Notes: a model not told the origin generated them from the sequence alone. Positions 1 to 47,147 are shown, numbered from the stretch's first letter. The stretch: 58,647 nucleotides of DNA from Candidatus Hydrogenedentota bacterium (GCA_029974275.1 JARKSN010000189.1:1-58647); one strand, 5' to 3'. Numbers and translations: made by a program.

Positions 1-189
1 CTGGGCTCGCTGGCGGTGGTGCCGCTGATGCTCACGCGCCATCCGGCGCCGCGCCATGAGCAGCACGCCGCCATCAGCCTGCGGGCTCTCACGCGCCGGG
101 CGCCGCTCACGGTCGTCGGCATCCTGCTGGTCTCGCTCAGCTACGGTGCTTTCTATGCGATCGGGCCGGTGTATGCGCTGAAGATCGGC
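1..189 (+). other. Internal fragment resembling a YcaD-like MFS transporter, in frame with the surface protein (probable chimeric junction)
   Basis: LAVVPLMLTRHPAP..ISLRALTRRAPLTVVGILLVSLSYGAFYAIGPVYALKIG resembles the central loop and TM7 of YcaD-like MFS proteins. Codon style (CTC/CTG/ATC) differs from the downstream sequence. Confidence 0.6.
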
Positions 190-19526: not shown

Positions 19527-22500
19527 TCACAACCGCAACACTGGCGCATCCACCGCTTCCGCGACGCGGACGACGTCCTCCCGGCAGGTGAAGAGCAGAA
19601 CCTGAGCGGTTTGTCCAATGCGCGCCAGCAGGCCCATGGCCCGCTCGAGACGAGCGTCGTCGTAATTGGAAAAGGGATCGTCGAGCAACATGGGAATGCT
19701 TTCGCCGGAGTCGCTCAAGGCCTGCACAAGCGCGAGGCGCAGCGAGAGGTAAATTTGATCGACGGTTCCTTTGCTCAATCGCCGCTCGGGATGATCGTCG
19801 AGATGGTCCGTCTGGGGAATGCGCACCGTGATTCCGAGGTCGCGATTCAAAAACAGTTCGGCGTAGGCCCCCCCGGTGATTTCACTGAGGTATTGGGCGG
19901 CTTGCGAGGCCAGTTTCGGGGCAATGCGCGCATGGCGGTCTCGTGCGACCTCTTCGATGCGCTCGGCGGCATAAGCGGCGGCGTCCAGTTCGAATTGCAA
20001 TTGTTCCCGGCGCAGCAAGAGTTCGGCTTGCTCTTCCTCGATTTCGTTGATCGATCGCAGTCCGGCCACATGCTCGGTCGCGGCGATTTGGATTGCGTGC
20101 GCTTCTTCCTGCTTCGCGGAAAATCGCCCCAGAAGGCCGTCCAACTCGGTTCGGATGTCGGCGACGGACCGATCCGATGTCTTCTCCTGCGTTCCGCTCT
20201 GCGCCACGGCGCGCCGTAGTTCGTCGATGTCATCGCCGCCGAGGATGAGGCGCGTCTGTTCGGTGAGGCGGCCTCGTTCTTCCCATGCTTCCCTGTATTG
20301 ACGCGCCTGATCGGCCAGGGTCTGCCATGCCTCTAGTGAATCCACGCCCACGGCTTCGAGTTGGCGGCGCAGGGACTCTTCGTGTTTGGCGAGGTCTTTT
20401 TCTTCGGCCGCGCGCTGGCGTTCGAGCCCTGCCAGACGTTCCTGCAACACCTCGAGACGTCCTTGTTTTTGACGGAGTTGCGCCGTGCGAATCCGGTATG
20501 CGCGGAGGGCGCTCAGGGCGCTTGTATGCTTGTGTTCGTCGCGGAAGCCGCGTTCTCGGAGGAGTTTGCGGACTTCCAGCGATTTTTCGACGTCGCGCCG
20601 TTGGTGGACGTCGAGTTCTGCGCGCAAACGTTCGAGGTCGGCCTCGTATTGAGCGGCCAGGTCGCGGTTTTCGGCGAGACGTCGCTTGGCGTCTCGATAC
20701 TCCTGATAGCGCGCGATGGCGCGCGTGGCCATTTCCGCGACATGGTCTTCGTGTTCGAGCGTTTCCCCCAATTCGGCGAAGGCGCGTTGGTGTTGTTCGA
20801 ACAAGCGCACGACGCGCAGATGTTTTTCTTCGGTTCGGCGTTCTTGTTCGCGCAGGGCCGCCGTGAGTTCTTCCAAACGCTCGGCGCCGACCCGGAGACG
20901 ATCGTGCAGGGCCTCAAGTTCGCGCGGGGTTGCGCAGCCGGATCGTTCGAGGAGGGTCTCCATTTCGGCGCGTTTGGCGTGGAATGCGGACTCCAGGGCC
21001 GCGAGTTCTTGCTCGGTTTCGGCGCATTCCGCTTCCGCGCGCGTGCGATCGCGCTTCGCGGAACGGTAGCTGGAGGCGTACCAGAGAACCATGACGAGAC
21101 AGCCCGCGGCGGGCACGTAGATGCCCGTGTTTTGAAAATACATGGCTGCCGCCGTGAACACTGCCATCAGCGCCAATCCCAGCAAGGCCATGTTGCGAAA
21201 CGTCGGCACGTCCGAGGCGTAATCCCGTTTCAGGTTTTGCAGGGCGTCGAGGCGGCTGTGTTGGCGCACAATCTGCTCGTCGCGCACGCGCGTATCCACT
21301 TCAAACGTGCGGGCCAGGCTGGGAAAGTCTTCGACGCCCTCGAAGATGCGGCGCGGTTCGGCGGTTTCTTCGTGAAGCCGTTCCACATGCCGGCGCAACG
21401 TGATCAGGACATTGGTTTCGTCGTCGCGCGCTTGGCGCTCAACCTGGAACGACGTGGCCAATTGTTGCAGCCATTCCATGGGGTTTGCGGCCATCCGGCT
21501 GAAATCGGGCAGGCGCGCCACGTCTTGCTGGGCCGCCTCCATGCGTGTGCGGGCCGCCGCGGCCTGAAACTCCGCGCGTTCGATGTCGTCTTGACATCGC
21601 GCCACGTCGCTCTCGATTGCGCCGAGTTCCTGGTCGACGGCGTCGGGAATGTCCTGAGAGGCCGGTCCGGCCACTTCGCCCAGGCGTTCGCGTTCCACGG
21701 CGAGCTGGTTTTCCGCCTCCGCTTGCTCCGTGCGTGTTCGATCCAACGCGGATTGCGCGGTCACGACCATGTTCTGGGCGCGTTGCACTTCGGGGGCGCG
21801 TTCGAGCGGGAAATCGCGGACGTTGCTCATCGCGAAGCAGCGTTTTTGTATTTCCTGAATGCGCTGATACAGTTCCTCCACTTGACGAAGCCGGTCGGCT
21901 TGCGTGTGCGTCTCGACGGCTCGCAGTTCCTCTTCCACGGCGGCGCGTCGGGTTTTGAGGTCGGCGATTTCGTTCAGGAGAGCGCTTCGCCGGGTCATCA
22001 TGTGGGAGACTTCGGCGATCTTGGCCAACGTGTTTTCTCGTTCCGCGTCGAGTTCTTGGAGGCGGGCGCGTATTTGCGGCAGCGGCTTGGTTCTTGCCTG
22101 GGGACGTCCGATGGCGCCGATATGGGCTTCGAGGCGTTTCAGGGCTTCCTCGGACGATCCCATGTCTTCGCCGGAGTCGGCCAGGGCCAGAATGCGTTCG
22201 CGAATCTGTCCCAGGGCGTCGTCGTTGCCGAGCGCATCGAGATCGAGATGGCCGATGGACGCCGTGCTCAGGAAGACCGTTTTGCTCAGCCCGAGATGGG
22301 CGTCGGCGAACGTGGGTTCGTGGTTGCGCAGCCGCGGATATTCATGGGTGATTTCGCGGGCATGCGTTTTGTCGAAGACATGGACCGATTCGTTGCGTTT
22401 GTCGAAGCTGCGAATGACTTCCACTTCGCGGCCGTCGTCCAAGTGATAGAGGAGTCGGCCGCCGTAGGCATGGGGCGATCGCCAGGGCCGGCGAAGCGTG

Positions 22501-22688
22501 TGGGACTCGTCGTAGAGGCGTTGGGCGGCGCTTCGTTTTTGGCCGTACAGCATGTCGCCGATGAAGTTGCGGACGGTCGTCTTGCCTTGCTCGTTGGGGC
22601 CGACGATGACTTGCAGCCCTGGATTCAGTTGGAGGGTGCATAGCGAAAACCGACCGTATCCTTCGATCCAGAGCGTTCGAACCCTCAT
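19527..22688 (-). CDS. YhaN/SbcE-like SMC-type ATPase with central TM hairpin
   Basis: GYGRF..GPNEQGKTT (Walker A), long coiled coil, LSKGTVDQIYLSLRLAL signature, LLDDPFSNYD (Walker B). Confidence 0.9.
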   Translation of the reverse strand: MRVRTLWIEGYGRFSLCTLQLNPGLQVIVGPNEQGKTTVRNFIGDMLYGQKRSAAQRLYDESHTLRRPWRSPHAYGGRLLYHLDDGREVEVIRSFDKRNESVHVFDKTHAREITHEYPRLRNHEPTFADAHLGLSKTVFLSTASIGHLDLDALGNDDALGQIRERILALADSGEDMGSSEEALKRLEAHIGAIGRPQARTKPLPQIRARLQELDAERENTLAKIAEVSHMMTRRSALLNEIADLKTRRAAVEEELRAVETHTQADRLRQVEELYQRIQEIQKRCFAMSNVRDFPLERAPEVQRAQNMVVTAQSALDRTRTEQAEAENQLAVERERLGEVAGPASQDIPDAVDQELGAIESDVARCQDDIERAEFQAAAARTRMEAAQQDVARLPDFSRMAANPMEWLQQLATSFQVERQARDDETNVLITLRRHVERLHEETAEPRRIFEGVEDFPSLARTFEVDTRVRDEQIVRQHSRLDALQNLKRDYASDVPTFRNMALLGLALMAVFTAAAMYFQNTGIYVPAAGCLVMVLWYASSYRSAKRDRTRAEAECAETEQELAALESAFHAKRAEMETLLERSGCATPRELEALHDRLRVGAERLEELTAALREQERRTEEKHLRVVRLFEQHQRAFAELGETLEHEDHVAEMATRAIARYQEYRDAKRRLAENRDLAAQYEADLERLRAELDVHQRRDVEKSLEVRKLLRERGFRDEHKHTSALSALRAYRIRTAQLRQKQGRLEVLQERLAGLERQRAAEEKDLAKHEESLRRQLEAVGVDSLEAWQTLADQARQYREAWEERGRLTEQTRLILGGDDIDELRRAVAQSGTQEKTSDRSVADIRTELDGLLGRFSAKQEEAHAIQIAATEHVAGLRSINEIEEEQAELLLRREQLQFELDAAAYAAERIEEVARDRHARIAPKLASQAAQYLSEITGGAYAELFLNRDLGITVRIPQTDHLDDHPERRLSKGTVDQIYLSLRLALVQALSDSGESIPMLLDDPFSNYDDARLERAMGLLARIGQTAQVLLFTCREDVVRVAEAVDAPVLRL

Positions 22689-23839
22689 GGCGCATTCTCC
22701 GGCGCGTCCGCGAGGAACAGGTTGCGCCCGCGGTACGCCGCCACGCCGAGTTCGCGCGCGCGCAGGAGCATGGCGCGGCGGGCCGGGTCGGATGTGTCGC
22801 GGATTTCTTCGTTCATCCGTTCGGCGAAAAGCCCCAATACGGTGCGGTCTCGTCCCAGGGCGACGAAATCTTCCTCGGGTTCCGTGCGATCGATCAGATC
22901 AAGATGTTCGAACGCGCTCGATGCCGCGTCGCGGATGGCGTCGATGGATCCGCGCCACGCCGCGGCGGCCGTGCCTGTCAGCGTCACGCGGGCCATGGCT
23001 CCGCGGCCGTCGTTGCGGGGCAATGCGCGCAAGGCTTCGATGAGTTGCTGGCTTGTGGTGAAAGCGGAACAGGAAAGCGTGTGGGCTTGGTAGACGACGC
23101 GGCTCGAGGCCATTGGATCCACCCGCACGATCCCGTCGGAAATGTCCACTTCGAGATAATGGCGCAGGCCCAGATCGTTGAATCCGCGCCCTTCCGGCAT
23201 GCCGGAATACCACATGCTCGTTGTGAAGGGGCCTGTGATGGGGGTTGCGGCGTGAAAATGGCCCAAGGCTAGATACGTCAACCCGGGACAGGCGGCCTCG
23301 ACGGCATGGAACGGGGCGTAGGCCTGTTTGTCGGGGGGTTGATGGCTGCGCTCGGATCCGTGCGCCACGGCGATATGCACGCGGCCATCTTGTTGGGCGC
23401 GCAAGGCGCCGAAAGGATTGGCGGAGATGTCGAGGCCGTCGAACGCGAATCCGTGCACGGTTAGCGGAATGTCTTCCGTCTCGACCGAAGACCACGTGGG
23501 GGTGCGGAAAATGTGCACGTTGGGGGGCCACGTCTCGGTCGCATACGGCGATTCGGGCACGTAGGGGTCGTGGTTGCCTGGCGCAAGGAAGACGGGAATG
23601 GGGGCAAGGTAGGCGAATTCGCGCTGCAAGAAGGCTACGGTGTCGCGGCTGACCCGATCGAGTTCGAACAAATCGCCGGCGATGAGCAGGGCGTCCGCCG
23701 GCCAGATGCGCGCCCGTTCGACGAGGGCGTGAAACACGTCGCGCAGTCCCTGCCGGCGCCGGTTGGCGCAGGCGACGGGCATTCCGCTTGCCGCGAAGGA
23801 AGTGTCCAAATGAATATCGGCCGTATGAATCAAACGCAT
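22685..23839 (-). CDS. YhaO/SbcD/Mre11-family metallophosphoesterase nuclease
   Basis: HTADIHL, AGDLF, PGNHD, AHG, YLALGHFH, YSGMPEG. Overlaps the ATPase gene (ATGA). Confidence 0.93.
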   Translation of the reverse strand: MRLIHTADIHLDTSFAASGMPVACANRRRQGLRDVFHALVERARIWPADALLIAGDLFELDRVSRDTVAFLQREFAYLAPIPVFLAPGNHDPYVPESPYATETWPPNVHIFRTPTWSSVETEDIPLTVHGFAFDGLDISANPFGALRAQQDGRVHIAVAHGSERSHQPPDKQAYAPFHAVEAACPGLTYLALGHFHAATPITGPFTTSMWYSGMPEGRGFNDLGLRHYLEVDISDGIVRVDPMASSRVVYQAHTLSCSAFTTSQQLIEALRALPRNDGRGAMARVTLTGTAAAAWRGSIDAIRDAASSAFEHLDLIDRTEPEEDFVALGRDRTVLGLFAERMNEEIRDTSDPARRAMLLRARELGVAAYRGRNLFLADAPENAP

Positions 23840-34666: not shown

Positions 34667-35781
34667 GAGAGCGGTGTCCTTTTTCCGATTTCGCCGCGCC
34701 GGTCCATGCGCGGCGGCGTTGTTTCCCACATGCCCGGTATTGCGGCGGCGCAATCGGGGCAGTTCCCGCCGTTCATGCGGTTCTCCGTTATGTAGAAACC
34801 ATGCCGGCGGATCAACGTGGCGCCGCACGCCGGACAGCGCGTGTTCTCGCGCTCCGGAACGCGTCCGGGCACATTGCCTTCATACACGAACTTCAACCCG
34901 GCATCGTTGCCTGCCGCGTATGCGCGGTCCAGTTCCGCCGCGCCGGTGCGCCGTTTGCCGGACATCTTGTAGTTCGGATGAAACGCCGTCACGTGCCACG
35001 GGATGTCCGTGGACAACGCCGCGATGAACTTCGCGATGGAGCGGAGTTCTTCCTCGCTATCGTTATAGTCCGGAACGACCAGCGTCACGATTTCGAGCCA
35101 GAATCCCAGGGCCTTGATGCGCTCAATCGCCGCCAAAATGTTGCTGAGTTCACCGCCGAGATCGCGATAGTGCCGCGCGTTGAAAGTCTTGAGATCGACC
35201 TTGTACAGATCGACGTGCGGACGGATGTAGTCGAGGGCTTCCGGCGTCGCATTTCCGTTGCTGACATAGCCGCAGACGATCCCGGCCTGCTTCGCGGGCT
35301 CGAAGATTTGGATGGCCCAGTCGGTTGTGATGAGAGGTTCGTTGTAGGTGCTGACGACGACGGGGGCGCCGCGCGCCAACGCCAGCGACACGATTTCGTC
35401 CGGGGCGCACGTTCGCGGATAGGTCGCGGCGCTGTCATCGCGCAGGACTTGACTGCTCACCCAATTCTGGCAAAAGCCGCAGGTGAAATCGCACCCTACC
35501 ATGCCGAACGACAGCGCATCGCGCCCAGGGTATGCGTGGAAAAACGGTTTCTTCTCGATAGGATCGACATGGAGCGCTGCGACATACCCCCCGGGCACGC
35601 GCAATGCGCCGTCTCGGTTGGCGCGCACCCGGCAGATGCCCGTCTGGCCTTCGGGAATGAGGCAGCGGTTGGCGCATGCCAGGCAGCGCACCGTTCCATG
35701 CCCCTCCTGTCGCGTCAGTTCAGGCGCGGCCAGGATCGTGTGTTGCTCCAGCCATTCGCGGAGCGATAGGCGCTTGCTCAT
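34663..35781 (-). CDS. amrS: AmmeMemoRadiSam-system radical SAM enzyme
   Basis: CLACANRC..GICRVR, DPIEKKPFFH, CDFTCGFCQNW, TYNEP, WHVTAFHP, YEGNV..TRCPAC. Confidence 0.9.
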   Translation of the reverse strand: MSKRLSLREWLEQHTILAAPELTRQEGHGTVRCLACANRCLIPEGQTGICRVRANRDGALRVPGGYVAALHVDPIEKKPFFHAYPGRDALSFGMVGCDFTCGFCQNWVSSQVLRDDSAATYPRTCAPDEIVSLALARGAPVVVSTYNEPLITTDWAIQIFEPAKQAGIVCGYVSNGNATPEALDYIRPHVDLYKVDLKTFNARHYRDLGGELSNILAAIERIKALGFWLEIVTLVVPDYNDSEEELRSIAKFIAALSTDIPWHVTAFHPNYKMSGKRRTGAAELDRAYAAGNDAGLKFVYEGNVPGRVPERENTRCPACGATLIRRHGFYITENRMNGGNCPDCAAAIPGMWETTPPRMDRRGEIGKRTPLS

Positions 35782-35871
35782 GCTCGCCCCGCCGCTGCCG
35801 CTTCGATCGCGAACCGCGTGAAAGAAAACCGCGCCGGAGCCCGTTCCATGGCACGCAGTCCTCGGGAGGGA

Positions 35872-36174
35872 TCAGTCTGGAATTTCGACGTTGATGTCAT
35901 CATTGTCGGCAATGACCTTGTAGCGATAGACGCCGTCTTCGGGGCTGTGTTCCGGATCGAGATGAAAGCTCCAGCCGTGCCACGGGCACATCACCTTTCC
36001 GTTTTCGACCACGCCCTCGGAAAGCGGACCGCCCGCGTGCGGACAGACGTCGCTGATGGCGTAAAACGTTCCGTCGACGTTGAATACGGCGATATATTCG
36101 TTTTCCTGCTCGACGCAGATCGATCCGTTGCGTGGAACGTCGTTTTTCGAGGCTATTTTCACGATTCTGGACAC
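35872..36174 (-). CDS. Rieske [2Fe-2S] ferredoxin
   Basis: CPHAGGPL..CPWHGWSF. GTG after AAGGAG. Confidence 0.9.
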   Translation of the reverse strand: MSRIVKIASKNDVPRNGSICVEQENEYIAVFNVDGTFYAISDVCPHAGGPLSEGVVENGKVMCPWHGWSFHLDPEHSPEDGVYRYKVIADNDDINVEIPD

Positions 36175-36501
36175 GGTTTGCTCCTTGCCTGCCGCCTTGT
36201 CGATTCCATCGTACTCCCTGCGCGGAAAGGCGTCAAGACGACGATCAGGCAGGGCTATCGCAATGCATTGCAACCTGCCCGAGTTTTTCTGTCCCCTTTT
36301 CCACGCCGGTTTTCCCGTTACGTTCATTCCTTGCGCTGAAAAATGCGGGGGGAGAGGCGTTTTGGGCCTTCTGGATATGGTGCGACGGCGTTTTCTCGCC
36401 ACAGCATATGGGGGCCTGTCTGGGGGGCATTTACTGGAGCGACGAATTCTTGTCACAATGACAACTTACTGGCATACAATGAGTTACGTATCCATAAACG
36501 C

Positions 36502-36530
36502 TTGACGGCCCGGCGCGCGGGTGGTACAAT
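36502..36530 (+). promoter_or_regulatory. Near-consensus sigma70 promoter of the MshEN-DnaA/pil locus
   Basis: TTGACG-N17-TACAAT with TG extended -10, 61 nt upstream of ATG 36592. Confidence 0.7.
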
Positions 36531-36591
36531 TCCCTTGCACTGAAGACCAAATGGAAGACGGCTCCGGGACGGAAGCGCGCAGAGGTTTGCC

Positions 36592-39330
36592 ATGCTGGGT
36601 TGGAACAAGGACAAAGAGAGTCGCGGCGATCAGAAGCCGGCAAAGCCAGCTTCCTCCCCTCCTGTTGCCGACGTTCGAGCCGTTTCCGCTCCGTCCGCTC
36701 CTTCCCGCCCGACAGAGGCGGCGCCCCTTCCGAATTCCGCAAAGGTCCGGCATCCCGCAAGCCGTTTGGGCGAGATACTGCTGGAAGAGGGGGTCATCAC
36801 CCAGAAACAGCTGACCGATGCCCTTGCCAAGCAGGAAAAGGACAAAGGTTTTTTGGGGCAGGCTTTGGTGGAGTTGGGCATCATCAACCAGCAGACGTTG
36901 GTTTCGTTTTTGGTGAAACAGTGCCGGATTCCTCACATTTGTTTGTTGGATTACGGCTTCAACAATGATCTGATCTCCCTGGTTCCCCGGGAGTTGTGCC
37001 TGAAGTACAAACTCATCCCCATCGATAAGTTGGGCAAAATACTGACAGTGGCGATGGTCGATCCGCTCGATCTGGAGGCCTTGTCGCAGGTGCGGGCGGT
37101 TTGTCCCGAATTGCGGATCAAGCCGATATTGTGCAATTGGGACCATTTCGAGCAGGTTGCGCGCCGGTATTTGATCGATGAACAGGCGAAGCTGGAGGAG
37201 CTGAGCGCCAAGAGTTTTGGGCTGAGCGAACGGCCCCAGGCGAAGAGCGGTTCCGAAAAATCGGCGCCGGCGGCGTTGACGCCGGGCGCTTCGAACGCGT
37301 TGGATGAGGCTGTGATGGCGATTGTGGCCGAGGCGGGCAAGGCGGATACGGCGCGCGTCGTGTCCGATCCGCCCGCAACGTTGTCTGCATCCGCTTCGGG
37401 GAGCGCGTCGCGTTCCGCTGCGCCGGCGTCGGGCGTCAGCCTGGAACAGATCGCCGTGGCGACGCGCGAGGGACTGAACGAAACCTTGCAACAAGCCCTT
37501 CTGCCCTTGGTGGAACAGGTTCGCGCATCCCAGGGGATAGAACCCGGCGTTCTGTCGGCCATGGCCGATCAGATTGGGCATGGGTTGCGCGAGAGCCTGC
37601 GCGATGCCGTGCGGGAGTCTGTGTCAGCGATGATCGAGGCGACATCGCGCAGCGGGCCGTCCCCGGAAATGACGCCGGAAATGTTGGCCGTCACCATCCA
37701 CAACAGCGTGGGCGGGGCCATGCAGGAGGCGATTTCTCAGTTGATCCAGGCCGCGTCGCTCGGCAACGAGCGGTCGGCCTTCGATCCCGAAACCGTTTCG
37801 GATCTGATCCGCGCAAGCGTCTCCAACGGAATGCGCGACAGTATGGAACGGTTGGCGGGAGCCGTCGAAAAATATGCGGAAGCCGCCACGGCAACGGCCA
37901 AGGCCGCGCCCGACATGGATTCGCTGGCCGCGCTGATCCAGACGAGCGTGAGCGGGGCCATGCAGGAAACGGTTGCGCTGCTTGTCCAGACCATGGGCAA
38001 GCAGCCTGGGGGACAGGTCCCGGCTCTTGCTCCGGAGGCGGTGGCGGACCTTGTGCGTCAGAGCATTGCCGGAAGCATGCAGGAGGCGATGGGGCGTCTG
38101 ACGGGAGTGGTCGAGCAGTATGTGGAGGCGGCTGGGGAATCGCGGAAATCTGCGGCGCCCGAGGCGCTTGCCGAGGCCGTGCATGACAGCATACGCGTGG
38201 CGATGGGGGAAGTGATCGCCCAATTGGCGGCGCAAAGCGGCGAGGGAAGCCGCGATCGCATCGTCGAGGATATTCACCGTTTGCTGGCGACGCAGGCGGC
38301 CGAATCCTCGAAGGTGACGGAGGTGGCCCAACGCACGCTGGAGATGGTTCAGGAAGCCATCGACACCGCCAAAGCGTCTCGCGCGGCGACGGAAATGGCC
38401 ACGGAATCCGCGCGGCAGCGGTTCCAGCAGCTTGCCGAAAACGAGTTGCCGAGCAGCGTGGCTCCGTTTCCGTTGGCGGACGCCCGCAAACTCCCGGAAG
38501 AGGGCGCGGCGGCCGTGCCGCTGGATATGGCCGAGGCCATCGACGGCCCCACGGAGAGAAGCCGGCGAGACGAGCGCATCCGTGCGGCTTTGGAGCACGA
38601 TCTCCCCGCGCCGGGATTTTCGTTTGCGGATTTCGTGCCCGGCAAGGCGAATCAATTTGTGTACGGGGTTTGCCGCGGGGTGTCGATCCGGCCTGGGCGG
38701 GAGTTCAATCCGCTGTTTTTGCATGGCGACACCGGGTTGGGCAAGACCCATTTGCTTCACGCGATTGCCGCGCAGATCCAGGAACGCGATCGCGACGCCC
38801 GGATAACGTATTTCTCGGCAAGCCGTTTTGCGCGCCGGGTCGAGCGGGCGGCGGCCGATGGGACGCTTGACGAACTTCGACACCGTCTGTGTATGACGGA
38901 TTTGCTGATGGTCGACGATCTTCAATTCCTGGAAGGCCGTCCCGAGGCCCAAGAGGAATTTTTTCACGTGTTCAACGCGTTGGTCTGCGAGGACCGTCAA
39001 GTCATTGCCGCGGGCTATGGCCCGCCCGATCGGCTCCCGCAGCTTCCCGCGTGGCTGACGTCGCGGTTGGCGGGCGGAGTTGTGGCGGGGATTGAGCCGC
39101 CGGAGTGGGAAGCCCGGATGATCATCCTGGGTCAGACGGCCGGCGCCTGCCAAACGGCGGTTTCGCATGATGTTCTGGAGCTTGTCGCCCGGCGGGCTCC
39201 CAACGACGTGCGCAGGATGATTGGATCGTTGCGGAAAGTGATCGCTTTCGCTAAGCTGGTCAATCAGGAGATTACGCCGGACCTGGCGGGCGAGGTCTTG
39301 CGGCGACTGGGCATCGAGGAGGCGGCCTAG
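36592..39330 (+). CDS. Fusion of MshEN/GSPII-N domain, helical repeats and DnaA-like AAA+ domain (no domain IV)
   Basis: N-terminal RLGEILLEEGVITQKQLTDALAKQ and LTVAMVDPLD. C-terminal FADFVPGKAN..NPLFLHGDTGLGKTHLLHAI..LLMVDDLQFL..QEEFFHVFNAL..SRLAGG..PP..DVRRMIGSL, then stop. Confidence 0.88.
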   Translation: MLGWNKDKESRGDQKPAKPASSPPVADVRAVSAPSAPSRPTEAAPLPNSAKVRHPASRLGEILLEEGVITQKQLTDALAKQEKDKGFLGQALVELGIINQQTLVSFLVKQCRIPHICLLDYGFNNDLISLVPRELCLKYKLIPIDKLGKILTVAMVDPLDLEALSQVRAVCPELRIKPILCNWDHFEQVARRYLIDEQAKLEELSAKSFGLSERPQAKSGSEKSAPAALTPGASNALDEAVMAIVAEAGKADTARVVSDPPATLSASASGSASRSAAPASGVSLEQIAVATREGLNETLQQALLPLVEQVRASQGIEPGVLSAMADQIGHGLRESLRDAVRESVSAMIEATSRSGPSPEMTPEMLAVTIHNSVGGAMQEAISQLIQAASLGNERSAFDPETVSDLIRASVSNGMRDSMERLAGAVEKYAEAATATAKAAPDMDSLAALIQTSVSGAMQETVALLVQTMGKQPGGQVPALAPEAVADLVRQSIAGSMQEAMGRLTGVVEQYVEAAGESRKSAAPEALAEAVHDSIRVAMGEVIAQLAAQSGEGSRDRIVEDIHRLLATQAAESSKVTEVAQRTLEMVQEAIDTAKASRAATEMATESARQRFQQLAENELPSSVAPFPLADARKLPEEGAAAVPLDMAEAIDGPTERSRRDERIRAALEHDLPAPGFSFADFVPGKANQFVYGVCRGVSIRPGREFNPLFLHGDTGLGKTHLLHAIAAQIQERDRDARITYFSASRFARRVERAAADGTLDELRHRLCMTDLLMVDDLQFLEGRPEAQEEFFHVFNALVCEDRQVIAAGYGPPDRLPQLPAWLTSRLAGGVVAGIEPPEWEARMIILGQTAGACQTAVSHDVLELVARRAPNDVRRMIGSLRKVIAFAKLVNQEITPDLAGEVLRRLGIEEAA

Positions 39331-39377
39331 GGGACAAGCGGGTTCCGCGGGCGGAAGGCCTCTGCGAGCCGAAAACG

Positions 39378-41123
39378 ATGACGAAGGAGAATGCCGTGCC
39401 CCCAAAAACTGGTAAACGCCGTTTGGGTGAAGTGCTCTTGGAGCAGGGATTGGTGAGCGTCACGCAACTCGAGGAGAGCATCGCCCTGCATCGTTCGACG
39501 GGGCAGAGCTTGGCGCATATCCTTGTCGAGAAACAATACGTCAGCGAAGAAGACCTCGTCGTGACGTTCAGCGAGCAGCTCGGCATTCCGCATATCCGCT
39601 TGTCGAATTACAACATCTCGAAGGATGTGATCAAGGAAGTGCCCGAATCGCTGGCGCGGCAGCATTTGATTCTGCCGGTGTCGATGACGGGCGACGTGCT
39701 GACCTTGGCGATGGCCGACCCGCTCAACATCATGGCCCTCGACGATCTGCGCATGCTGACCAGTTACGATATCGAGACGGTGGTGGCGGCGGAGTCCGAG
39801 TTGATGGAAGCCATCGACCGCAATTACGGCGGCAAACAGAGCGCGGAATTGTATGCGTCGCTGGTGGGGGATCAGGGGCAGAAGGCGGACAACCTCGAGA
39901 TTGTCGAGGGACAGGAAGATATTGGCGACATCTCGGCGATGCAGGCCGAGGCCCAGGACGCGCCGGTGGTCCGCCTGGTCAATCTCATTCTGATGAACGC
40001 GCTCGAATCGCGGGCAAGCGACATCCACATCGAGCCGTATGAGAAAATCCTGCGCGTCCGATACCGCATCGACGGCGTGCTCGAAGAAACCAAGAATCCG
40101 CCCAAAAGCGTGCAATCGGCCTTGGTCTCGCGCCTCAAGATCATGAGTTCGCTCGACATTGCCGAACATCGCCTGCCGCAGGACGGGCGCTTCCGCATTC
40201 GCTTCAAGGGGCGCGAAATCGATTTCCGCATCTCGTTCTTGCCGTGTTATTACGGCGAAAAAGTCGTGATGCGCATCCTCGACAAGGGCAGCCTCACGCT
40301 CGATCTCGACAAGCTGGGCTTCGAGGAACAGCCCATGCAGGCCTTTCAGGACGCGTTGAAACTGCCGTTTGGCATGATCTTGTTGACGGGGCCCACGGGA
40401 AGCGGCAAGACGACGACCCTGTACAGCGCGCTGCATAAGCTCAACACGCCCAAGCACAACATCATCACCGTGGAGGACCCGGTCGAATACGAGCTGTTCG
40501 GCGTCAACCAGGTGCAAACCCAGGCGCAAATCGGCCTCACGTTCGCCGCAGGCCTTCGCAGCATTCTGCGACAGGACCCCGACATTGTCATGGTCGGCGA
40601 AATTCGCGACGAAGAAACCGCCGATATCGCGGTCAAGGCGGCGTTGACGGGACACCTCGTGTTGAGCACGCTCCACACGAACGACGCCGCCAGCGTGTTC
40701 ACTCGTTTGACGGACATGGGGCTTGAGCCGTTCCTGGTCCAGTCGTCGGTGGCGTTGGCCGCCGCGCAGCGCTTGATGCGCCGCGTATGTCCCGACTGCA
40801 AGGAAAACATCCGCGTGCCCGAATCCGTTCTGGAGCGCATTCAATACGTGCACGATCCCAAAAATCCGCCGCCCTCCTTCGTGCGGGGCCGCGGCTGCGG
40901 CAAGTGCAAGGACACCGGATACCGGGGGCGGTTGGCGGTCATCGAAGCGATGCCGAACTACCCTGAATTGGAAGAGTTGATCATGGGGCGGGCTCCGTCG
41001 ACGCAGATCAAAAAAGCGGCCATGCAATGCGGCATGCGCACCCTGCGCCAGAACGCGTTGGCCAAAGCCGCCCAAGGGATGACCACCATCGAGGAAGTGC
41101 TTCGCGTAACGGCCACGGACTGA
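39378..41123 (+). CDS. pilB: Type IV pilus assembly ATPase with MshEN N-terminus
   Basis: RLGEVLLEQG, ASDIHIEP, LDIAEHRLPQDGR, GPTGSGKTTTLY, LRQDPD, TGHLVLSTLHTN, CPDC..CGKC. Confidence 0.93.
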   Translation: MTKENAVPPKTGKRRLGEVLLEQGLVSVTQLEESIALHRSTGQSLAHILVEKQYVSEEDLVVTFSEQLGIPHIRLSNYNISKDVIKEVPESLARQHLILPVSMTGDVLTLAMADPLNIMALDDLRMLTSYDIETVVAAESELMEAIDRNYGGKQSAELYASLVGDQGQKADNLEIVEGQEDIGDISAMQAEAQDAPVVRLVNLILMNALESRASDIHIEPYEKILRVRYRIDGVLEETKNPPKSVQSALVSRLKIMSSLDIAEHRLPQDGRFRIRFKGREIDFRISFLPCYYGEKVVMRILDKGSLTLDLDKLGFEEQPMQAFQDALKLPFGMILLTGPTGSGKTTTLYSALHKLNTPKHNIITVEDPVEYELFGVNQVQTQAQIGLTFAAGLRSILRQDPDIVMVGEIRDEETADIAVKAALTGHLVLSTLHTNDAASVFTRLTDMGLEPFLVQSSVALAAAQRLMRRVCPDCKENIRVPESVLERIQYVHDPKNPPPSFVRGRGCGKCKDTGYRGRLAVIEAMPNYPELEELIMGRAPSTQIKKAAMQCGMRTLRQNALAKAAQGMTTIEEVLRVTATD

Positions 41124-41168
41124 TCCGGCGAACGGGGCGCGAGCCATCACGGCATCAAGAGGGCAGGC

Positions 41169-42257
41169 ATGAGCAGCGGCGCGGAAATCAAGATCAGCAT
41201 CAAAGAACTTCTGACCAAAATGATCGAACTCGGGGCCAGCGATCTTCACCTGGTGGTGGGCGCGCCGCCTGTTCTGCGCATCCACGGGGGGCTGGAGTAT
41301 CTGGAGGGATATCCGTCGCTCAAGCCGGACATGTCGCAAGAACTCATTTACAGCGTGATGAGCGACGAGCAGATCGCCGTGTTCGAAAGCGAGCGCGAAT
41401 GCGATCTTTCGTTTGGGGTGGACGGGTTGAGCCGGTTCCGCCTGAACGTGTACCGGGATCGGGGGTCGGTCGCGGCGGCGTTTCGCGCGATTCCCTTCGA
41501 CATCCGATCGTTCGATGAGCTAGGGCTTCCGCGCGTCGTGGCGGATTTCGCCTATCGCCCGTTGGGGCTGGTGCTGGTGTGCGGCCCGACGGGCAGCGGC
41601 AAGTCGACCACGCTCGCCGCCATCATCGATCGCATCAACCGCGAGCGAAACGTTCATATCATCACCATCGAGGATCCGATCGAGTACCTGCACCGCCATC
41701 AGCGGTCCATCATCAACCAACGCGAGATCAACGCGGACACCAACTCTTTTTCCGCCGCGCTCAAGCATGTGCTGCGTCAGGACCCCGATGTGATTCTGAT
41801 CGGCGAAATGCGCGATCCCGAGACCATCGCCGCCGCGTTGACCGTTGCCGAGACCGGCCATTTGGCCTTTGCCACGTTGCATACCAACGACGCGTTGCAG
41901 ACCATCAACCGCATCGTGGACGTCTTTCCGCCAAGTCAGCAAGCGCAGATCCGCACGCAGCTCTCGTTCGTTCTGGAGGGAGTCGTCGTGCAGCAGCTCG
42001 TCCCTCGTCCCGACAACATGGGGCGCGTGGTGGCGCTTGAAGTCATGCTGCCCAACACGGCTATTCGCTCGCTCATTCGCGACGAAAAGCTCCAGCAAAT
42101 TCCTTCGATGATCGAGATCGGGGCCGGCGAAGGCATGATGACCATGAACCAATCGCTTCACCGGCTCGTGCGCCGCAACATCATCACCACGACCGAGGCG
42201 TTCAAGCACACCAGCGATCCCGACGGGCTGCGCCGCCTCATGGAAAAGAGCTCGTGA
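41169..42257 (+). CDS. pilT: Type IV pilus retraction ATPase
   Basis: ASDLHL, RFRLNVY, GPTGSGKSTTLAA, TIEDPIEY, AAETGHL-like AETGHL, AIRSLIRD (AIRNLIRE motif). Confidence 0.95.
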   Translation: MSSGAEIKISIKELLTKMIELGASDLHLVVGAPPVLRIHGGLEYLEGYPSLKPDMSQELIYSVMSDEQIAVFESERECDLSFGVDGLSRFRLNVYRDRGSVAAAFRAIPFDIRSFDELGLPRVVADFAYRPLGLVLVCGPTGSGKSTTLAAIIDRINRERNVHIITIEDPIEYLHRHQRSIINQREINADTNSFSAALKHVLRQDPDVILIGEMRDPETIAAALTVAETGHLAFATLHTNDALQTINRIVDVFPPSQQAQIRTQLSFVLEGVVVQQLVPRPDNMGRVVALEVMLPNTAIRSLIRDEKLQQIPSMIEIGAGEGMMTMNQSLHRLVRRNIITTTEAFKHTSDPDGLRRLMEKSS

Positions 42258-43855
42258 TTCCTCTCGGCGCGCAACGCGCCGGATTCCACGGCGAAGGCGC
42301 CTCCCGTTGGCTTTGGATCGTTGGCATCGTCCGCATTTGCATGCTTGCCGTCATCGCCGCCGGAGCCTACCTGGTCGTTCCGCCCGGACAGACGGGAGCG
42401 GGATGGCTGTTGGCCTTTTATGGCTTTGGCATGCTGGCGACGGCGTGGTATCTGTTCATGGCGCGGCGCGGCGACGGCGGCATTCGGGCGCTGACGTGGA
42501 CGCTGGTGCTGGCCGATTTCAGCGTGGTTTCCGCCACGGTGAATTTTAGCGGCGGCCCGGAGAGTTTCTTCGCGTTTTTGTTTGTGGTGGTGATCCTCGA
42601 AGCGGGCCGGTTGCTGGGCGTGCGGGAGGGCTTTGTCGTCGCCACGCTGGCGACCGCCCTGGTCTTCGTCGAATGCGCCTTGACCCCCACGCCTCTGGTA
42701 AGCGTCGCGGGAGCCGCGATGTGGTACAGCTTTCTGGTGCAAGCGTTGGCGTTCTATCTCTCGGCGTTCATCAGCGGCCACTGGAACCAGCAGGTCGACC
42801 GCATGCGCCAGTTTCAGCGCGAGATTCTCGACAACATGAACAACGGCTTTCTCATCACCGGGCCAACGGGCATTGTCACCGCCCAAAACAAGGCCGCCGA
42901 TCGCATCCTCGGCATGGAAACAGGAGCCGCTTTGGGCCGTCCCGTCCAGGACGTGTTGCGGGTCGAGGCGGACGGCGAGTGCCCCATCCTCACCGCGCTG
43001 CGCGCCGAACGCGATTTCACGAGTTATGAATTTCAGGCGATGACGGACGACGGACCCAAATGGATGGGGCTCACCACAAGCCGCATCTACGATTCGGCGC
43101 GCCGATTGACCGGCATCATCGCTTCGTTCAGCGACCTCACCGAAATCGCCCAGATGCGCGACGAACTCAAGCGCCAGGACCGTCTGGCCGTCGTGGGCGA
43201 ACTCGCGGCCGGTCTTGCGCACGAAATCCGAAACCCCGTCGCGGCGATCCGATCATCGGTCGAGGAACTCAACGCCAACATCGACGCTCGGCCATTCGCG
43301 GAAAAGCTCGCCGCCATTGCGTTGCGCGAATCGGATCACCTCAACCGGATCGTGACGGACTTTTTTGATTTCGCCCGAAAGCCAAGCATGCGCCGCGAGG
43401 CCTTCGACGTGCGCGGACTGGCCGAGGAGGTGCGCGACAGCTTGCGCCTCCAACGTCCCGACTGCTCGGATATGGCATGTCAACTGGTCTTGCCGGACTC
43501 TCCCTGCTTTGCCCTGGGCGATCGCTCGCAGATCAAGCAGGTGTTTGTGAACATCGCGAAAAACGCCGTTGAAGCGATGGGCGAAAAGGGCGCGTTGACG
43601 ATCGTGGTGGCGCCTGGCCCGGGATTTGTCGAGACGCGTTTCGACGACGAAGGCCCCGGAATCGATCCCGACAAGGTTGCGCGGATTTTCGAGCCCTTCT
43701 ATACTACCAAGGCGACCGGCACGGGGATGGGGCTGGCCGTCTGCATGCGCATCATCACCGCCCATGACGGCGCCATTCATGTCAGACCGCGCGAAGGACG
43801 CGGCACAAGCATGAGCGTGCGCTTGCCGGCTGCAAGAAAGGACGGGCTGGAATGA
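42254..43855 (+). CDS. pilS: PilS-like membrane sensor histidine kinase
   Basis: About 5-6 TM helices, PAS, LAHEIRNP, N box, DEGPGI, FEPFYTTK, GTGMGL. Lies between pilT and pilR. Confidence 0.8.
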   Translation: MIPLGAQRAGFHGEGASRWLWIVGIVRICMLAVIAAGAYLVVPPGQTGAGWLLAFYGFGMLATAWYLFMARRGDGGIRALTWTLVLADFSVVSATVNFSGGPESFFAFLFVVVILEAGRLLGVREGFVVATLATALVFVECALTPTPLVSVAGAAMWYSFLVQALAFYLSAFISGHWNQQVDRMRQFQREILDNMNNGFLITGPTGIVTAQNKAADRILGMETGAALGRPVQDVLRVEADGECPILTALRAERDFTSYEFQAMTDDGPKWMGLTTSRIYDSARRLTGIIASFSDLTEIAQMRDELKRQDRLAVVGELAAGLAHEIRNPVAAIRSSVEELNANIDARPFAEKLAAIALRESDHLNRIVTDFFDFARKPSMRREAFDVRGLAEEVRDSLRLQRPDCSDMACQLVLPDSPCFALGDRSQIKQVFVNIAKNAVEAMGEKGALTIVVAPGPGFVETRFDDEGPGIDPDKVARIFEPFYTTKATGTGMGLAVCMRIITAHDGAIHVRPREGRGTSMSVRLPAARKDGLE

Positions 43856-45261
43856 CCCTGCGACACCGCGTGCTTGTGGTGGACGACGAAACGAGCATGC
43901 GCGAGCTTCTCGAGATCATCCTCGGTGGCGACGGATACGAGGTGCAAACCCGGCCCGATGTAGACGCCGCGGTGGCGTGCCTCGGGGACCAAAATTTCGA
44001 CGCGGTCCTCACCGATCTGCGCATAGGGCCGGATCGCGACGCCGGCATGCGGCTGCTTTCGTGGTTGAGCGAGCACGCGCCCGATACGCCGGCGATCATG
44101 ATGACCGCGTACGGGTCCGTCGAAACGGCGATCGAGGCGATGAAGCGCGGCGCCTCCGATTATATTATGAAGCCGTTCAAGAACGATGAAGTGCGGCTTG
44201 TCATGCGCCGCGCAATCGAGCAGCGCAATCTCGTTCGCGAAAACGTCGCGTTGAAAAGGGCCCAAGCCGACCGCGGGCGCATCGAAAACATCATTGGGTC
44301 GAGTCCGGCGATCGAGGCCGTGCGCACGATGATCCGGCGCGTCGCCGCGCTGCCCAGCACCGTCGCCATTCACGGAGAAAGCGGCGTTGGCAAGGAACTC
44401 GTCGCGCGCGGCATCCACCAGCTCAGTGATCGCGCCAACAAGCCTTTCGTGGCGATCAATTGCGGCGCTTTCCCCGAGGCCCTGCTCGAAAGCGAACTGG
44501 TCGGCCACAAGCGCGGTTCGTTCACCGGGGCCGTGGAAGACAAGGAAGGATTGTTCGTCGTGGCCAACGGCGGCTCTCTGTTTCTCGACGAAATTGGCGA
44601 GATGCCCTTGTCGCTTCAGGTGAAGCTGCTGCGCGTGCTCGACAACCACGTCGTGATGCCCGTCGGCGGCACGAGCGGCATCCAGGTGAACGTGCGCATC
44701 ATCAGCGCCACCAACCGGGACCTTGAAGAGCGCATCCGGGCGGGGGCGTTTCGCGAGGATCTGTACTACCGTCTCAACGTCATTCCCATCAACGTGCCGC
44801 CGCTTCGCGATCGCGCCGACGACATTCCCATGCTGGCGCGTCACTTCGCGAGCATGCACGCCCAGCGCATGGGACGCCAGAAGATCGTGATCGCGCCGGA
44901 AGCCGAGGCGGCCTTGGCCGCGTTCCATTGGCCCGGCAACGTGCGTGAACTCATGAACGTGCTGGAGCGCGCCGTCGCGCTCTGCGCCCATGATCACATC
45001 GAGATCGCCGATTTGCCCGACCGCGTAACGCAGTTCGTGTCGCCGTCCGGCAAAACCGCCCATGCGCTGCCGCCCGGCGGCCTCGATCTCGAGGCCTTGG
45101 TCGCCGACCTCGAAATGGACCTTATCCAACAGGCTTTGCGCAACGCCCGGCACTCGCAAAAACGCGCCGCCGAGCTTCTCGGCCTCACCCCGCGATCATT
45201 GCGGTACCGTCTTCAAAAATACGGTCTCGATTCCAAATTCCGCATTGACGACAGCGAGTGA
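43852..45261 (+). CDS. pilR: PilR/NtrC-like sigma54-dependent response regulator
   Basis: REC, GESGVGKE, INCGA, GSFTGA, LFLDEIGE, FREDLYYRLNV, WPGNVREL, C-terminal HTH. Confidence 0.85.
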   Translation: MTLRHRVLVVDDETSMRELLEIILGGDGYEVQTRPDVDAAVACLGDQNFDAVLTDLRIGPDRDAGMRLLSWLSEHAPDTPAIMMTAYGSVETAIEAMKRGASDYIMKPFKNDEVRLVMRRAIEQRNLVRENVALKRAQADRGRIENIIGSSPAIEAVRTMIRRVAALPSTVAIHGESGVGKELVARGIHQLSDRANKPFVAINCGAFPEALLESELVGHKRGSFTGAVEDKEGLFVVANGGSLFLDEIGEMPLSLQVKLLRVLDNHVVMPVGGTSGIQVNVRIISATNRDLEERIRAGAFREDLYYRLNVIPINVPPLRDRADDIPMLARHFASMHAQRMGRQKIVIAPEAEAALAAFHWPGNVRELMNVLERAVALCAHDHIEIADLPDRVTQFVSPSGKTAHALPPGGLDLEALVADLEMDLIQQALRNARHSQKRAAELLGLTPRSLRYRLQKYGLDSKFRIDDSE

Positions 45262-45350
45262 CCGCGAAACAGCGCCCGGCCTGGCCGCAATGCAATGAGG
45301 GTCAAGAGGGATCGCCGTTAGTGCGGAATCGTGGCTGACGCGATCCGGCG

Positions 45351-47147
45351 TTACTTGGCGGCGTCCGTCAGACTTGCCACCCGCGCCCAGTAGGCGTCCT
45401 TGAAACTGCTCATGGATTGGCCTTCGTTGGCGAACTGAATCTGCAGCGCATCGGCAATCGCGAAAAATTCCTTGGCGGAAGCCTTCTGTTGGACGAGTTG
45501 GTCTTCAGGCACAGGCCCCGTCTCGGGCAACCGCATCATGGCGACGTAATAGACCGGCATGCGGAACTTTTTCACGCGCAGCAACCTTTCGGGATCGTCT
45601 TTCGCCGCTCTTTCGGCCTTCGCCAATATCTTGTTCGCGCGCGGCACGAAATCATCCGCGAAAAAGGCCCCGGTCGGCGGATAGCCGAGGCCGATGTGTT
45701 CCGTTGACGTGGCGGCGCGGTCGTGCAGGAACGCGATGTATTTTCGGATGGGTTTCGCGGCGGGACCGTAATACGCGTCGGTGAATTCGGCGATTTCCTG
45801 GTCGACGTCGCGATTCGGCTTCCACAGCATGCGCGCCAGCAGGTACGCGCGGAGTTCGGCCATTTCGCCGCATCCGTTTCCTTGGTAGTTGCCCTGCTCG
45901 AAAAGACCTCGCGTGCCGTGCGCGATGAAAAACCGGATGTTCGGCTGAAGCGAATGCAAATTCGGGAACGGCTGAATGTAATGGCTGAAATTGGTCACGT
46001 AATCCCAGATGAACAGGTTTTGCGTTTTTTGCTGCCAGGCCTTCATGTCGCCCACGAAGGTCTTGTTGCGATCGCTGGGGCAGCCGTCGAGGGGGTGCGA
46101 GAAACAGCACTCGATGCTGCACAAACGCGGGGCGACGTTGTCGCGCGGGACAAGCGTCTTCGGGGCCTTGCGCGTGTACTGATAGGCCAGCGTGCCCACG
46201 AAACGGTCCGGAAATTCCTCGCAGACCGCGTCGGCCACTTGATTCACGAACCAGATAACCGGCCCCGCCTCGCTTTCTTCGGCCTTGGCGATGGCTTGGC
46301 ATGCGGCGCACTGACACGGATGGAAGCAATCGTTTTGCGAAACGTCTACGACCCTTGCATTGGGATCGGATCGGAACACTTCCCGGACGCGTTCGGTAAT
46401 CAGCGCCAGCACATCGGGATGGGTCAGGCAGAGTTGGGCCGTTTCGTGACGGCGCGCGCCGTCGATGAGCGAGTAGTATTCGGGATGCGTGGCGAAATAC
46501 GTCTGCGGCGGCACGAATTGAGCGAATGTGTGCACGCCCCAATACAGGAAGCAGCCGCCGTGAGCCTCGTCGAGTCGCACAATCCAGGAGGTATTCATCC
46601 GGTTGCGCAGGTTCCAATCCTGATCGCGGGCCTCGACCCAGAACGGTTCGCGATACAAGAGGGGCGGAACGTATGTTTCGTCGATATGCCCGATGCGCAA
46701 TGTCGATCGCTTGGGAATGCGCGAGACGGTCGGCGTGAACCAGCGGCATCCCAGGCGCTCGTCGAGGAACGCGTACACGCCGTAGGCTGTGCCGCGCACC
46801 GGCCCGCCGACAATCACCAGGCAATCGCCGCGCGTCGCGATGAGATAGCCCTCGTCGCCCAAGGCCTTCCAGTCAGGCTTGACGCCGAGTTCGTCGAGGT
46901 AGCGGGCGTTGCCCAGCACGATCGCCTTGCGCGGCAGCGGGGCGGCATCCGTCTGAATCGGCAACGTCGCGCCGGTGATTTGGGCCAAATGCGCCTGCAA
47001 GTCCGCCGCCGCCGTATCCACGACCGGCGCGCACTTCTCCGGCTTCACGATGACGTACTCGCTTTTTCCGTTCTGGGCGAGCGTGATGGCCCATGCGGGC
47101 GCCGCCCCCAGGAAGATGACCATCGGGAAAATGACGTAACCGCGCAT
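45351..47147 (-). CDS. Secreted DUF4838-family putative glycoside hydrolase
   Basis: Signal peptide, GTAYGVYAFL..LGCRWF, HPEYY, QLCLTHPDV, SQND..CQC..C, TLAYQYT, IWDY. ATG after GAGGAGG. Confidence 0.8.
   Translation of the reverse strand: MRGYVIFPMVIFLGAAPAWAITLAQNGKSEYVIVKPEKCAPVVDTAAADLQAHLAQITGATLPIQTDAAPLPRKAIVLGNARYLDELGVKPDWKALGDEGYLIATRGDCLVIVGGPVRGTAYGVYAFLDERLGCRWFTPTVSRIPKRSTLRIGHIDETYVPPLLYREPFWVEARDQDWNLRNRMNTSWIVRLDEAHGGCFLYWGVHTFAQFVPPQTYFATHPEYYSLIDGARRHETAQLCLTHPDVLALITERVREVFRSDPNARVVDVSQNDCFHPCQCAACQAIAKAEESEAGPVIWFVNQVADAVCEEFPDRFVGTLAYQYTRKAPKTLVPRDNVAPRLCSIECCFSHPLDGCPSDRNKTFVGDMKAWQQKTQNLFIWDYVTNFSHYIQPFPNLHSLQPNIRFFIAHGTRGLFEQGNYQGNGCGEMAELRAYLLARMLWKPNRDVDQEIAEFTDAYYGPAAKPIRKYIAFLHDRAATSTEHIGLGYPPTGAFFADDFVPRANKILAKAERAAKDDPERLLRVKKFRMPVYYVAMMRLPETGPVPEDQLVQQKASAKEFFAIADALQIQFANEGQSMSSFKDAYWARVASLTDAAK

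Follow-up and report, generated by a model that had tools for sequence, protein, structure and literature searches.

Can a single gene unite the sensing domain of a pilus motor with the ATPase core of DnaA, the initiator of replication, and what would the resulting protein do? The question is raised by a gene in a stretch of 58,647 nt from Candidatus Hydrogenedentota bacterium (GCA_029974275.1, JARKSN010000189.1:1-58647; "the window" below means this whole stretch), where an original prediction, made from the sequence alone, had seen an MshEN domain fused to a DnaA-type AAA+ ATPase at the head of a type IV pilus operon. The gene is located at 36,592-39,330 (forward strand, as are all its features given below) and is an open frame of 912 amino acids; its product (P0001) starts with MLGW, a start common to its relatives. 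We confirmed that the gene truly joins a domain of the type with which pilus motors sense cyclic di-GMP (c-di-GMP) to a DnaA ATPase core, and that the MshEN-DnaA protein is a phylum-wide family and no one-off. With moderate confidence, we read it as an accessory of the PilB pilus motor that responds to c-di-GMP and oligomerises in an ATP-dependent way.

Domains and reading frame of the fusion gene

Pfam and NCBIfam scans recovered both halves of the protein above threshold: MshEN (PF05157) at residues 113-194 (E 1e-12; 48.3 bits, cut-off 23.1), NF053729 (a 53-residue model of the c-di-GMP motifs) at residues 58-110 (56.2 bits, cut-off 38), and Bac_DnaA (PF00308) at residues 676-831 (E 3.1e-45; 154.7 bits, cut-off 23). 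In P0001, Pfam gave no match to DnaA_N (domain I) or Bac_DnaA_C (domain IV) at E ≤ 1, none to the T2SSE motor ATPase (PF00437), and no DNA-binding, receiver or kinase domain. Because the match to the DnaA equivalog TIGR00362 covers only profile positions 48-338 of 437 (238.3 bits, under the cut-off of 343.9) and stops at 338, domain IV is missing from the protein, which ends at the AAA+ lid; the Hda equivalog TIGR03420 also scores under its cut-off (88 bits; cut-off 194.8). A six-frame search of the whole assembly found a single match to Bac_DnaA_C (PF08299), which belongs to the canonical dnaA on another contig, C302.

Read from its N-terminus, the protein has a poorly conserved, Pro/Ala/Ser-rich low-complexity tail (residues 1-57; 36,592-36,762); an MshEN_N part predicted to bind c-di-GMP, with two 24-residue motifs (58-81 and 87-110) and the canonical 5-residue spacer (82-86) between them (36,763-36,921); an MshEN_C part, a T2SSE_N-type alpha/beta docking subdomain (residues 111-200; 36,922-37,191); seven helical repeats of 32 residues (residues 283-550; 37,438-38,241); and a DnaA domain III AAA+ module with its lid (residues 672-906; 38,605-39,309). 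The original prediction had placed the MshEN motif at the N-terminus, domain III from about 38,617 and Walker A at 38,725-38,748, and had noted that the protein lacks domains I and IV; all of this stood, and the positions are exact (R58, which opens motif 1, begins at 36,763; the Bac_DnaA match begins at residue 676, which is 38,617; Walker A is G712-T719).

The fusion is no assembly artefact. Near-identical DNA is present in seven runs from at least five wastewater, activated-sludge or digester studies, and a 2938-nt contig of an independent study covers 36,300-38,657 with 47 substitutions, its only indels being an inserted T at 36,395, upstream of the open frame, and an in-frame 9-nt deletion at 36,685; two further runs yield identical pieces. 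The deletion removes one copy of a 9-nt unit (2.3 copies at 36,685-36,705, in the Pro/Ala/Ser-rich tail; the only repeat that Tandem Repeats Finder detected) that is also absent from P0002, a 98% identical protein, and represents a strain-level in-frame length polymorphism. P0002, from a second strain of the species, differs from the window protein at 17 positions, none of them within residues 58-200 and two within the ATPase. A misassembly, which would have undone the original prediction, is contradicted by independent DNA that keeps the frame, and by a single frame in all 73 of the two-half loci described below. One DNA run gave a junction that skips 37,281-38,497; its shorter side is just 21 letters long, and we treated it as a chimeric or foreign contig.

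Gene order and distribution across the phylum

We surveyed the locus in one genome per species, which gave 308 confirmed stretches, and kept the best 80 loci. Both halves of the fusion are present in 73 of these 80, and pilB lies directly downstream in 70 of the 73 (gap of 5-345 nt, median 68). The other three loci are cut by contig ends (inside a partial pilB in L015 and L062, and 291 nt past the fusion gene in L060), so that pilB is the next gene in every locus that can be judged (70 of 70 with complete data). The full order fusion-pilB-pilT-pilS-pilR is found in 48 of the 80 loci, and the genes upstream are not conserved among related loci. Ten loci that extend at least 3.5 kb past pilB keep the fusion-pilB pair and lack pilT, pilS and pilR there.

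Within the GTDB phylum of the window, 128 of 135 genomes have an N-domain match at E ≤ 1e-25, among them 85 of the 86 high-quality ones; the seven genomes that gave no match are 81-93% complete. A profile of the whole protein matches 132 of the 135 at E ≤ 1e-60, which is an upper bound, since a score this high is also within reach of a true DnaA. Of the 177 proteins that a homologue search gave, 120 were listed, and all of these carry both PF05157 and PF00308; where annotations are given, these are Hydrogenedentes proteins named "DnaA/Hda family protein", "ATP-binding protein" or "DnaA". The ESM Atlas holds two clusters with the MshEN-DnaA architecture, both from Hydrogenedentota. A canonical dnaA exists besides the fusion gene in all six genomes checked (that of the window and five others, one dnaA each), and in two single-contig genomes distances of about 0.6 Mb and more than 3 Mb separate the two genes. 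We also considered a range beyond the phylum, as 14 of the 80 loci are labelled Nitrospir* and single ones Bathyarchaeia, Rhodothermaeota or FCB group; all five that were checked coincide with genomes of the window's phylum, so these labels are no evidence of a wider range.

The gene order of the window agrees with that of the relatives. A pilB gene (39,378-41,123; 581 amino acids, MshEN plus T2SSE ATPase, PF00437 474.9 bits) begins 47 nt past the fusion stop and is followed by genes for a pilT-type retraction ATPase (41,169-42,257), a pilS-type sensor histidine kinase (42,254-43,855) and a pilR-type sigma-54-dependent response regulator (43,852-45,261), all on the forward strand; the opposite strand carries the genes upstream, which encode a Rieske protein and two radical-SAM proteins. 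The fusion gene therefore heads a pilB-pilT-pilS-pilR block, as had been proposed. The strong promoter proposed along with it stands in part: there is a near-consensus sigma-70-like site (TTGACG-17-TACAAT with an extended TG, 10 of 12 positions; 36,502-36,530, forward strand) 62 nt before the start codon, but it is a consensus match only and a predicted promoter, and the region 35,700-45,500 holds four promoter-like sites against 1.7 ± 1.3 in shuffles. In one metatranscriptome run, five pieces of 151 nt fall on pilB and pilT and the fusion gene has none, which is too little to infer expression or co-transcription. The window's assembly contains 18 matches to the T2SSE ATPase family, of which 8 are full-length and PilB/GspE-like, and only the pilB of the window adjoins a fusion gene; PilM-type genes are found on contigs C239 and C106.

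Elsewhere in the window, a frame of 2253 residues (16-6,777, forward strand), in which only a bacterial surface immunoglobulin-like domain and a TSP3 repeat were recognised, probably encodes a giant surface protein, and an SbcC/SbcD-like pair at 19,527-23,839 (reverse strand) consists of a 1053-residue AAA_27/SMC_N protein and a calcineurin-like phosphoesterase.

The sensor domain and its linker

The MshEN motif is a tandem of 24-residue units, RLGxx(L/V/I)(L/V/I)xxG(L/V/I)(L/V/I)xxxxLxxxLxxQ, separated by a 5-residue spacer (Wang et al., 2016; PMC5013675). In P0001, motif 1 is a complete fit and motif 2 fits save for a Phe at its first position. Counted against the relaxed motif of Wang et al. 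(PMC5013675), the fusion protein of the window has one deviation and the PilB of the window has four; among the PilBs next to fusion genes, 68 of 72 are without the Gly that the motif has as its third residue in motif 2. NF053729 matches the N-domains of the family (81 of 81, E ≤ 1e-5) and those of the neighbouring PilBs (72 of 72). Because it deviates less from the motif than PilB does, the fusion protein may be the better c-di-GMP receptor of the two. We also considered a dead c-di-GMP site in PilB; the idea is weakened by the match of every neighbouring PilB N-domain to NF053729 despite the larger number of motif deviations.

An AF2 (AlphaFold2) model of residues 50-200 (predicted local distance difference test, pLDDT, 89.8) has the four-helix bundle and the alpha/beta subdomain of this fold. 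Compared by Foldseek, it matches MshE bound to c-di-GMP (5htl; E 9e-10, template modelling scores, TM, 0.69/0.74) and GSPII domains of PilF (TM up to 0.79, 9g1w); and it also matches the N-domains seen in two docking complexes, PilB-N with PilZ (7lkm) and EpsE-N1 with EpsL (2bh1). The mean frequency of the top residue is 0.63-0.71 in the N-domain and the ATPase, versus 0.24 in the linker, and the second half of the N-domain is the most conserved part of the protein. Four cysteines in this half (C111, C136, C171 and C181) are invariant or nearly so in the family, and the neighbouring PilB has none of them.

In other Hydrogenedentota genomes, the four-Cys MshEN-type domain also occurs joined to a diguanylate cyclase (PAS-GGDEF) or to a cNMP-binding domain (L100:3603-5177, forward; L101:2791-4185, reverse; L102:3402-4628, forward), and motif 1 of the cNMP-fused forms lacks its Arg-Leu-Gly start. 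Given these fusions, the domain behaves like a module for signalling or docking that can be moved between proteins.

The 32-residue repeat of the linker is helical and begins with Pro. Its copy number, seven in the window protein, ranges from 0 to 9 across 103 relatives, and the lengths of the family proteins range from 560 to 1184 residues; the repeats have no Pfam match, and a search of the ESM Atlas with residues 270-625 gave no usable match. Such a length-variable tether between two constrained ends suggests either that the ends sit on different partners, or that an oligomer shows many N-domains together.

The DnaA-type ATPase and the role of the protein

The ATPase has kept the residues with which DnaA handles nucleotide and neighbouring protomers. 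Alignment to E. coli DnaA pairs K178 with K718 of Walker A, D235/D236 with D775/D776 of Walker B (38,914-38,919), R285 with R825, the Arg finger of box VII (S824-R825; 39,052-39,066), and R334 with R874 of sensor II (39,211-39,213). Counted over 103 family members, the scope of all residue counts in this section unless stated, the G/G/K/H of Walker A, the DD of Walker B, the SR of the Arg finger and the Arg of sensor II are kept in every one; the original prediction had named the DD, SR and sensor II residues in the window protein, and the alignment bears it out. It had also pointed to a GYGPP sequence at sensor I. This sequence is indeed there (G808-P812, with Tyr809; 39,013-39,027), but it is lineage-specific and no family trait: the position of E. 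coli D269 is an Asp in DnaA and in 90 of 103 relatives, and the equivalent of Arg281, which is W821 in the window protein, is an Arg in 81; the window copy is alone among the 103 in having Tyr at the first and Trp at the second.

Modelled separately from the N-domain, the C-terminal 283 residues (pLDDT 88.4) superimpose on domain III of B. subtilis DnaA (8bv3) with a TM of 0.94 and a root-mean-square deviation (rmsd) of 1.5 Å, and on Hda with an rmsd of about 5 Å. Searched against structures, the family profile matches DnaA at E 1e-57 to 1e-86 (1.7e-86 for 8btg) and Hda at 1e-13 to 1e-16, and the family hidden Markov model (HMM) gives 330-420 bits for fusion members, 245-272 for true DnaAs (those of the phylum and of E. 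coli alike), 49 for Hda and 25 for DnaC. The ATPase shares 34% identity (161 bits) with the genome's own DnaA and matches that of B. subtilis at E 8.6e-49; it is no nearer to the DnaA of its own phylum than to distant DnaAs. A maximum-likelihood tree was built from 87 domain III sequences by a quick search on a subsample, with E. coli Hda as the root; it places the fusion ATPases in a single clade (98-99 in the Shimodaira-Hasegawa-like approximate likelihood ratio test) apart from the true DnaAs, and puts the six DnaAs of Hydrogenedentota with that of E. coli and other canonical ones. Judged from these comparisons, the ATPase is derived from DnaA, with its nucleotide and inter-protomer machinery kept and its DNA-recognition parts lost or never present.

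Some positions that serve other functions of DnaA have changed. In E. coli DnaA, single-stranded DNA (ssDNA) is captured through H and B motifs marked by V211 and R245, respectively, and R227 aids contacts between domains III (PMC10325909). The H-motif position is variable in the family (most commonly A in 34 members, S in 18, K in 16 and T in 8), and holds Glu in the window protein but Ile in the DnaA of the same genome; at the B-motif position, 88 of 103 members have Glu. As the genome's own DnaA likewise has no Arg at the B position, only the loss at the H motif is telling. The R227 position is Cys in the window protein and in all six relatives aligned, and the residue equivalent to K243 is basic (Arg or Lys) in 96 of 103. 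The clamp-binding motif of Hda, which we took to be an N-terminal QL[SD]LF or QLxLxL, occurs in none of the 103 members when searched for anywhere in the protein, and its absence from the window protein had been predicted.

The original prediction had left two readings: a partner of the pilus motor, or a modulator of DnaA. The comparative data (pilB next to the gene in 70 of 70 loci, and no such linkage to dnaA) favour the first and lend no positive support to the second; and because the family adjoins pilB on its upstream side throughout the phylum, a pilus regulator is more likely than a replication protein. The fusion protein would act in the cytoplasm, as an accessory to one particular type IV pilus system. 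Its MshEN domain, a putative paralogue of the N-domain of PilB itself, would sense c-di-GMP through the four-helix motif pair, while the alpha/beta subdomain would dock on a partner at the pilus base (PilB, or a PilM/GspL- or PilZ-type protein). The DnaA-type AAA+ module would bind ATP and assemble head-to-tail through its Arg finger, and such an oligomer would therefore display several sensor and docking domains together on tethers of variable length; depending on the state of c-di-GMP and ATP, it might promote, block or position PilB-driven extension.

Several observations weigh against reading the protein as a motor accessory. Adjacency to pilB alone is no proof of binding, and an ATPase far closer to DnaA than Hda is would also suit a protein that still recognises DnaA. 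The window copy has neither the sensor I Asp nor the Arg281 equivalent, and may for this reason hydrolyse ATP or assemble differently from the rest of the family. Residue 1 of motif 2 is Phe or Tyr, not Arg, in 80 of 81 members, and affinity for c-di-GMP is not predictable from it; and, as the N-domains of the fusion proteins and of PilB all match the c-di-GMP model, a division of labour between the two is not established. One locus (L059) encodes the N-domain and the repeats and stops before the ATPase. Seven of the ten loci without pilT, pilS and pilR, which form a single Hydrogenedens-like clade (L075-L077 and L079-L082; for example, L080:14585-16414), have the fusion-pilB pair followed by a conserved unknown gene of 306 residues and by scpA, which encodes the chromosome segregation and condensation protein A.

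The alternative that survives best, although we consider it unlikely, is a c-di-GMP-gated modulator of replication initiation whose domain III would use its Arg finger or ATP site to insert into oligomers of DnaA or to cap them, in the manner of Hda but without the clamp. The close relationship of the ATPase to DnaA (the 34% identity and the TM of 0.94), its invariant Walker, Arg finger and sensor II residues, and the position of the gene pair two genes from scpA in the Hydrogenedens-like clade would all suit such a role, and in Caulobacter pili and c-di-GMP are reported to be linked to the initiation of the cell cycle (PMC7196804). Because of that link, and because the module has stayed so DnaA-like, the idea keeps some weight. 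It is opposed by the missing clamp motif and the sub-threshold Hda score, by the Cys at the R227 position, by a clade apart from DnaA with no special nearness to the DnaA of the phylum, and by a gene fixed beside pilB and not beside dnaA, which in the two single-contig genomes lies about 0.6 Mb or more than 3 Mb away.

A variant that we hold to be rather improbable would combine the two roles, as a pilus-tethered anti- or co-initiator: a rise of c-di-GMP on surface contact would free the DnaA-type module from the pilus base or recruit it there, and the module would co-assemble with DnaA through the Arg finger and ATP site, such that surface sensing sets initiation. If true, pilus motor and initiator would be linked directly and physically, by a device that evolved through duplication of DnaA's own ATPase.

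We think it quite improbable that the protein is a DNA-handling partner of the pilus, with the DnaA-type module bound to incoming ssDNA or to the nucleoid and MshEN tethering it to the pilus base. Solved structures do show DnaA domain III binding ssDNA (one of them, 3r8f, came up as a fold match), the K243-equivalent residue is mostly basic, and Thermus PilF, which the N-domain model matches in fold, is part of a pilus and DNA-uptake system; however, the hydrophobic residue of the H motif is not conserved, the B-motif position is mostly Glu, domain IV is absent, and no competence genes were seen in the window. Least probable of all is an input or output element of the PilS-PilR pathway that regulates pilin transcription rather than the motor, which would suit the 48 of 80 loci whose co-directional block includes pilS and pilR, but which is contradicted by the ten loci that keep the fusion-pilB pair without pilT, pilS or pilR and by a P0001 that carries no DNA-binding, receiver or kinase domain.

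Other proteins with DnaA domain III were seen alongside this family. The window's assembly (G000) has a third DnaA-like paralogue on contig C193 (L003, about 1480-3495, forward strand), with an N-terminal PF00308 AAA+ domain (E 1.8e-14) followed by about 500 charged, repetitive residues that look coiled-coil-like by eye; the type recurs in two other genomes of the phylum (L097 and L098), and the three form one long-branched clade. In addition, a large family of proteins of about 640 residues carries domain III in tandem (P0125, P0132, P0153 and P0255-P0373; where named, Gemmatimonadota "DnaA/Hda family protein"). There are also a short direct MshEN-domain III fusion of 454 amino acids (P0218), proteins of 1876 and 1990 residues with MshEN and two domain III modules, and fusions of domain III to TPR (TPR-domain III, in Sumerlaeia), DUF835 and a zinc ribbon; proteins of these other architectures are P0123, P0124, P0212, P0213, P0218, P0223, P0227, P0235, P0240, P0245, P0247 and P0251. 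None of the 135 genomes of the phylum holds a close relative of P0218; a metagenome scan with it gave 80 loci, a set taken up by one generic DnaA pattern, and none of them has an MshEN or pilB match, and a homologue search, dominated by the tandem proteins of about 640 residues, yielded one further MshEN plus DnaA protein (P0267) among the matches listed. In view of these varied fusions, the module appears more widely redeployed than the label "DnaA/Hda family protein" suggests.

Control of type IV pili by c-di-GMP runs through MshE/PilB-type motors and through FimX-PilZ, and to our knowledge the only domain-IV-less paralogue of DnaA is Hda. The family described here would add a third solution, kept by a whole phylum, in which a c-di-GMP receptor domain is joined to a nearly unaltered DnaA ATPase core and locked beside pilB. 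If the motor-accessory reading is true, the AAA+ fold of the initiator clade can serve beyond DNA replication, as a switch for assembly that is driven by nucleotide; if the protein instead modulates DnaA, it would be a direct wire from surface sensing to the cell cycle. Both domains are small, soluble and open to in vitro study without culturing the organism. Full-text literature searches, made in a limited set of papers, found only incidental mentions of MshEN with DnaA, without a description of the architecture, nothing for T2SSE_N with DnaA, and nothing relevant on pili of Hydrogenedentes or Hydrogenedentota; and DnaA is not mentioned in the founding paper on MshEN (PMC5013675) or in two supplements that tabulate architectures. 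This is consistent with the earlier statement that no protein of this architecture had been characterised.

Among known systems, domain III of DnaA (8bv3 and 8btg; T. maritima 2z4r; A. aeolicus 2hcb and 3r8f) has the same fold and the same conserved Walker A and B, sensor II and Arg finger. The fusion protein differs from DnaA in lacking domain I, a DnaA-type domain II and domain IV, in scoring under the equivalog cut-off and branching as a separate clade, and in the lost hydrophobic residue of the H motif and the Cys at the R227 equivalent. Hda (5x06, 3bos) is also a DnaA-derived domain III that has no domain IV and keeps the Arg finger; the fusion ATPase is much more DnaA-like (Hda scores 49 bits against 245-272 for DnaAs, and its rmsd is about 5 Å), has no clamp motif and is preceded by about 670 extra residues.

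The N-terminal half resembles the MshEN/GSPII domains of V. cholerae MshE (5htl), T. thermophilus PilF (9g1w, 8pdk) and PilB, with which it shares the paired 24-residue motifs and 5-residue spacer followed by an alpha/beta subdomain, HMM scores above the cut-offs, a predicted fold (TM 0.69-0.79) and a pilus operon. It differs from them in what follows it, a long linker with repeats and then a DnaA-type AAA+ module in place of a T2SSE motor, in a motif 2 that opens with Phe instead of Arg, and in the four conserved cysteines that are absent from the neighbouring PilB. In the FimX-PilZ-PilB system of Xanthomonas citri (7lkm, 7lko), the c-di-GMP input reaches the N-domain of PilB via separate proteins. 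The putative sensor of the fusion protein is MshEN rather than EAL/PilZ and is joined to an AAA+ oligomerisation module; the two systems would be alike in using a c-di-GMP protein in trans that is encoded with, or acts on, the extension ATPase (here as a prediction), and the N-domain model matches the N-terminal chain of PilB in that complex.

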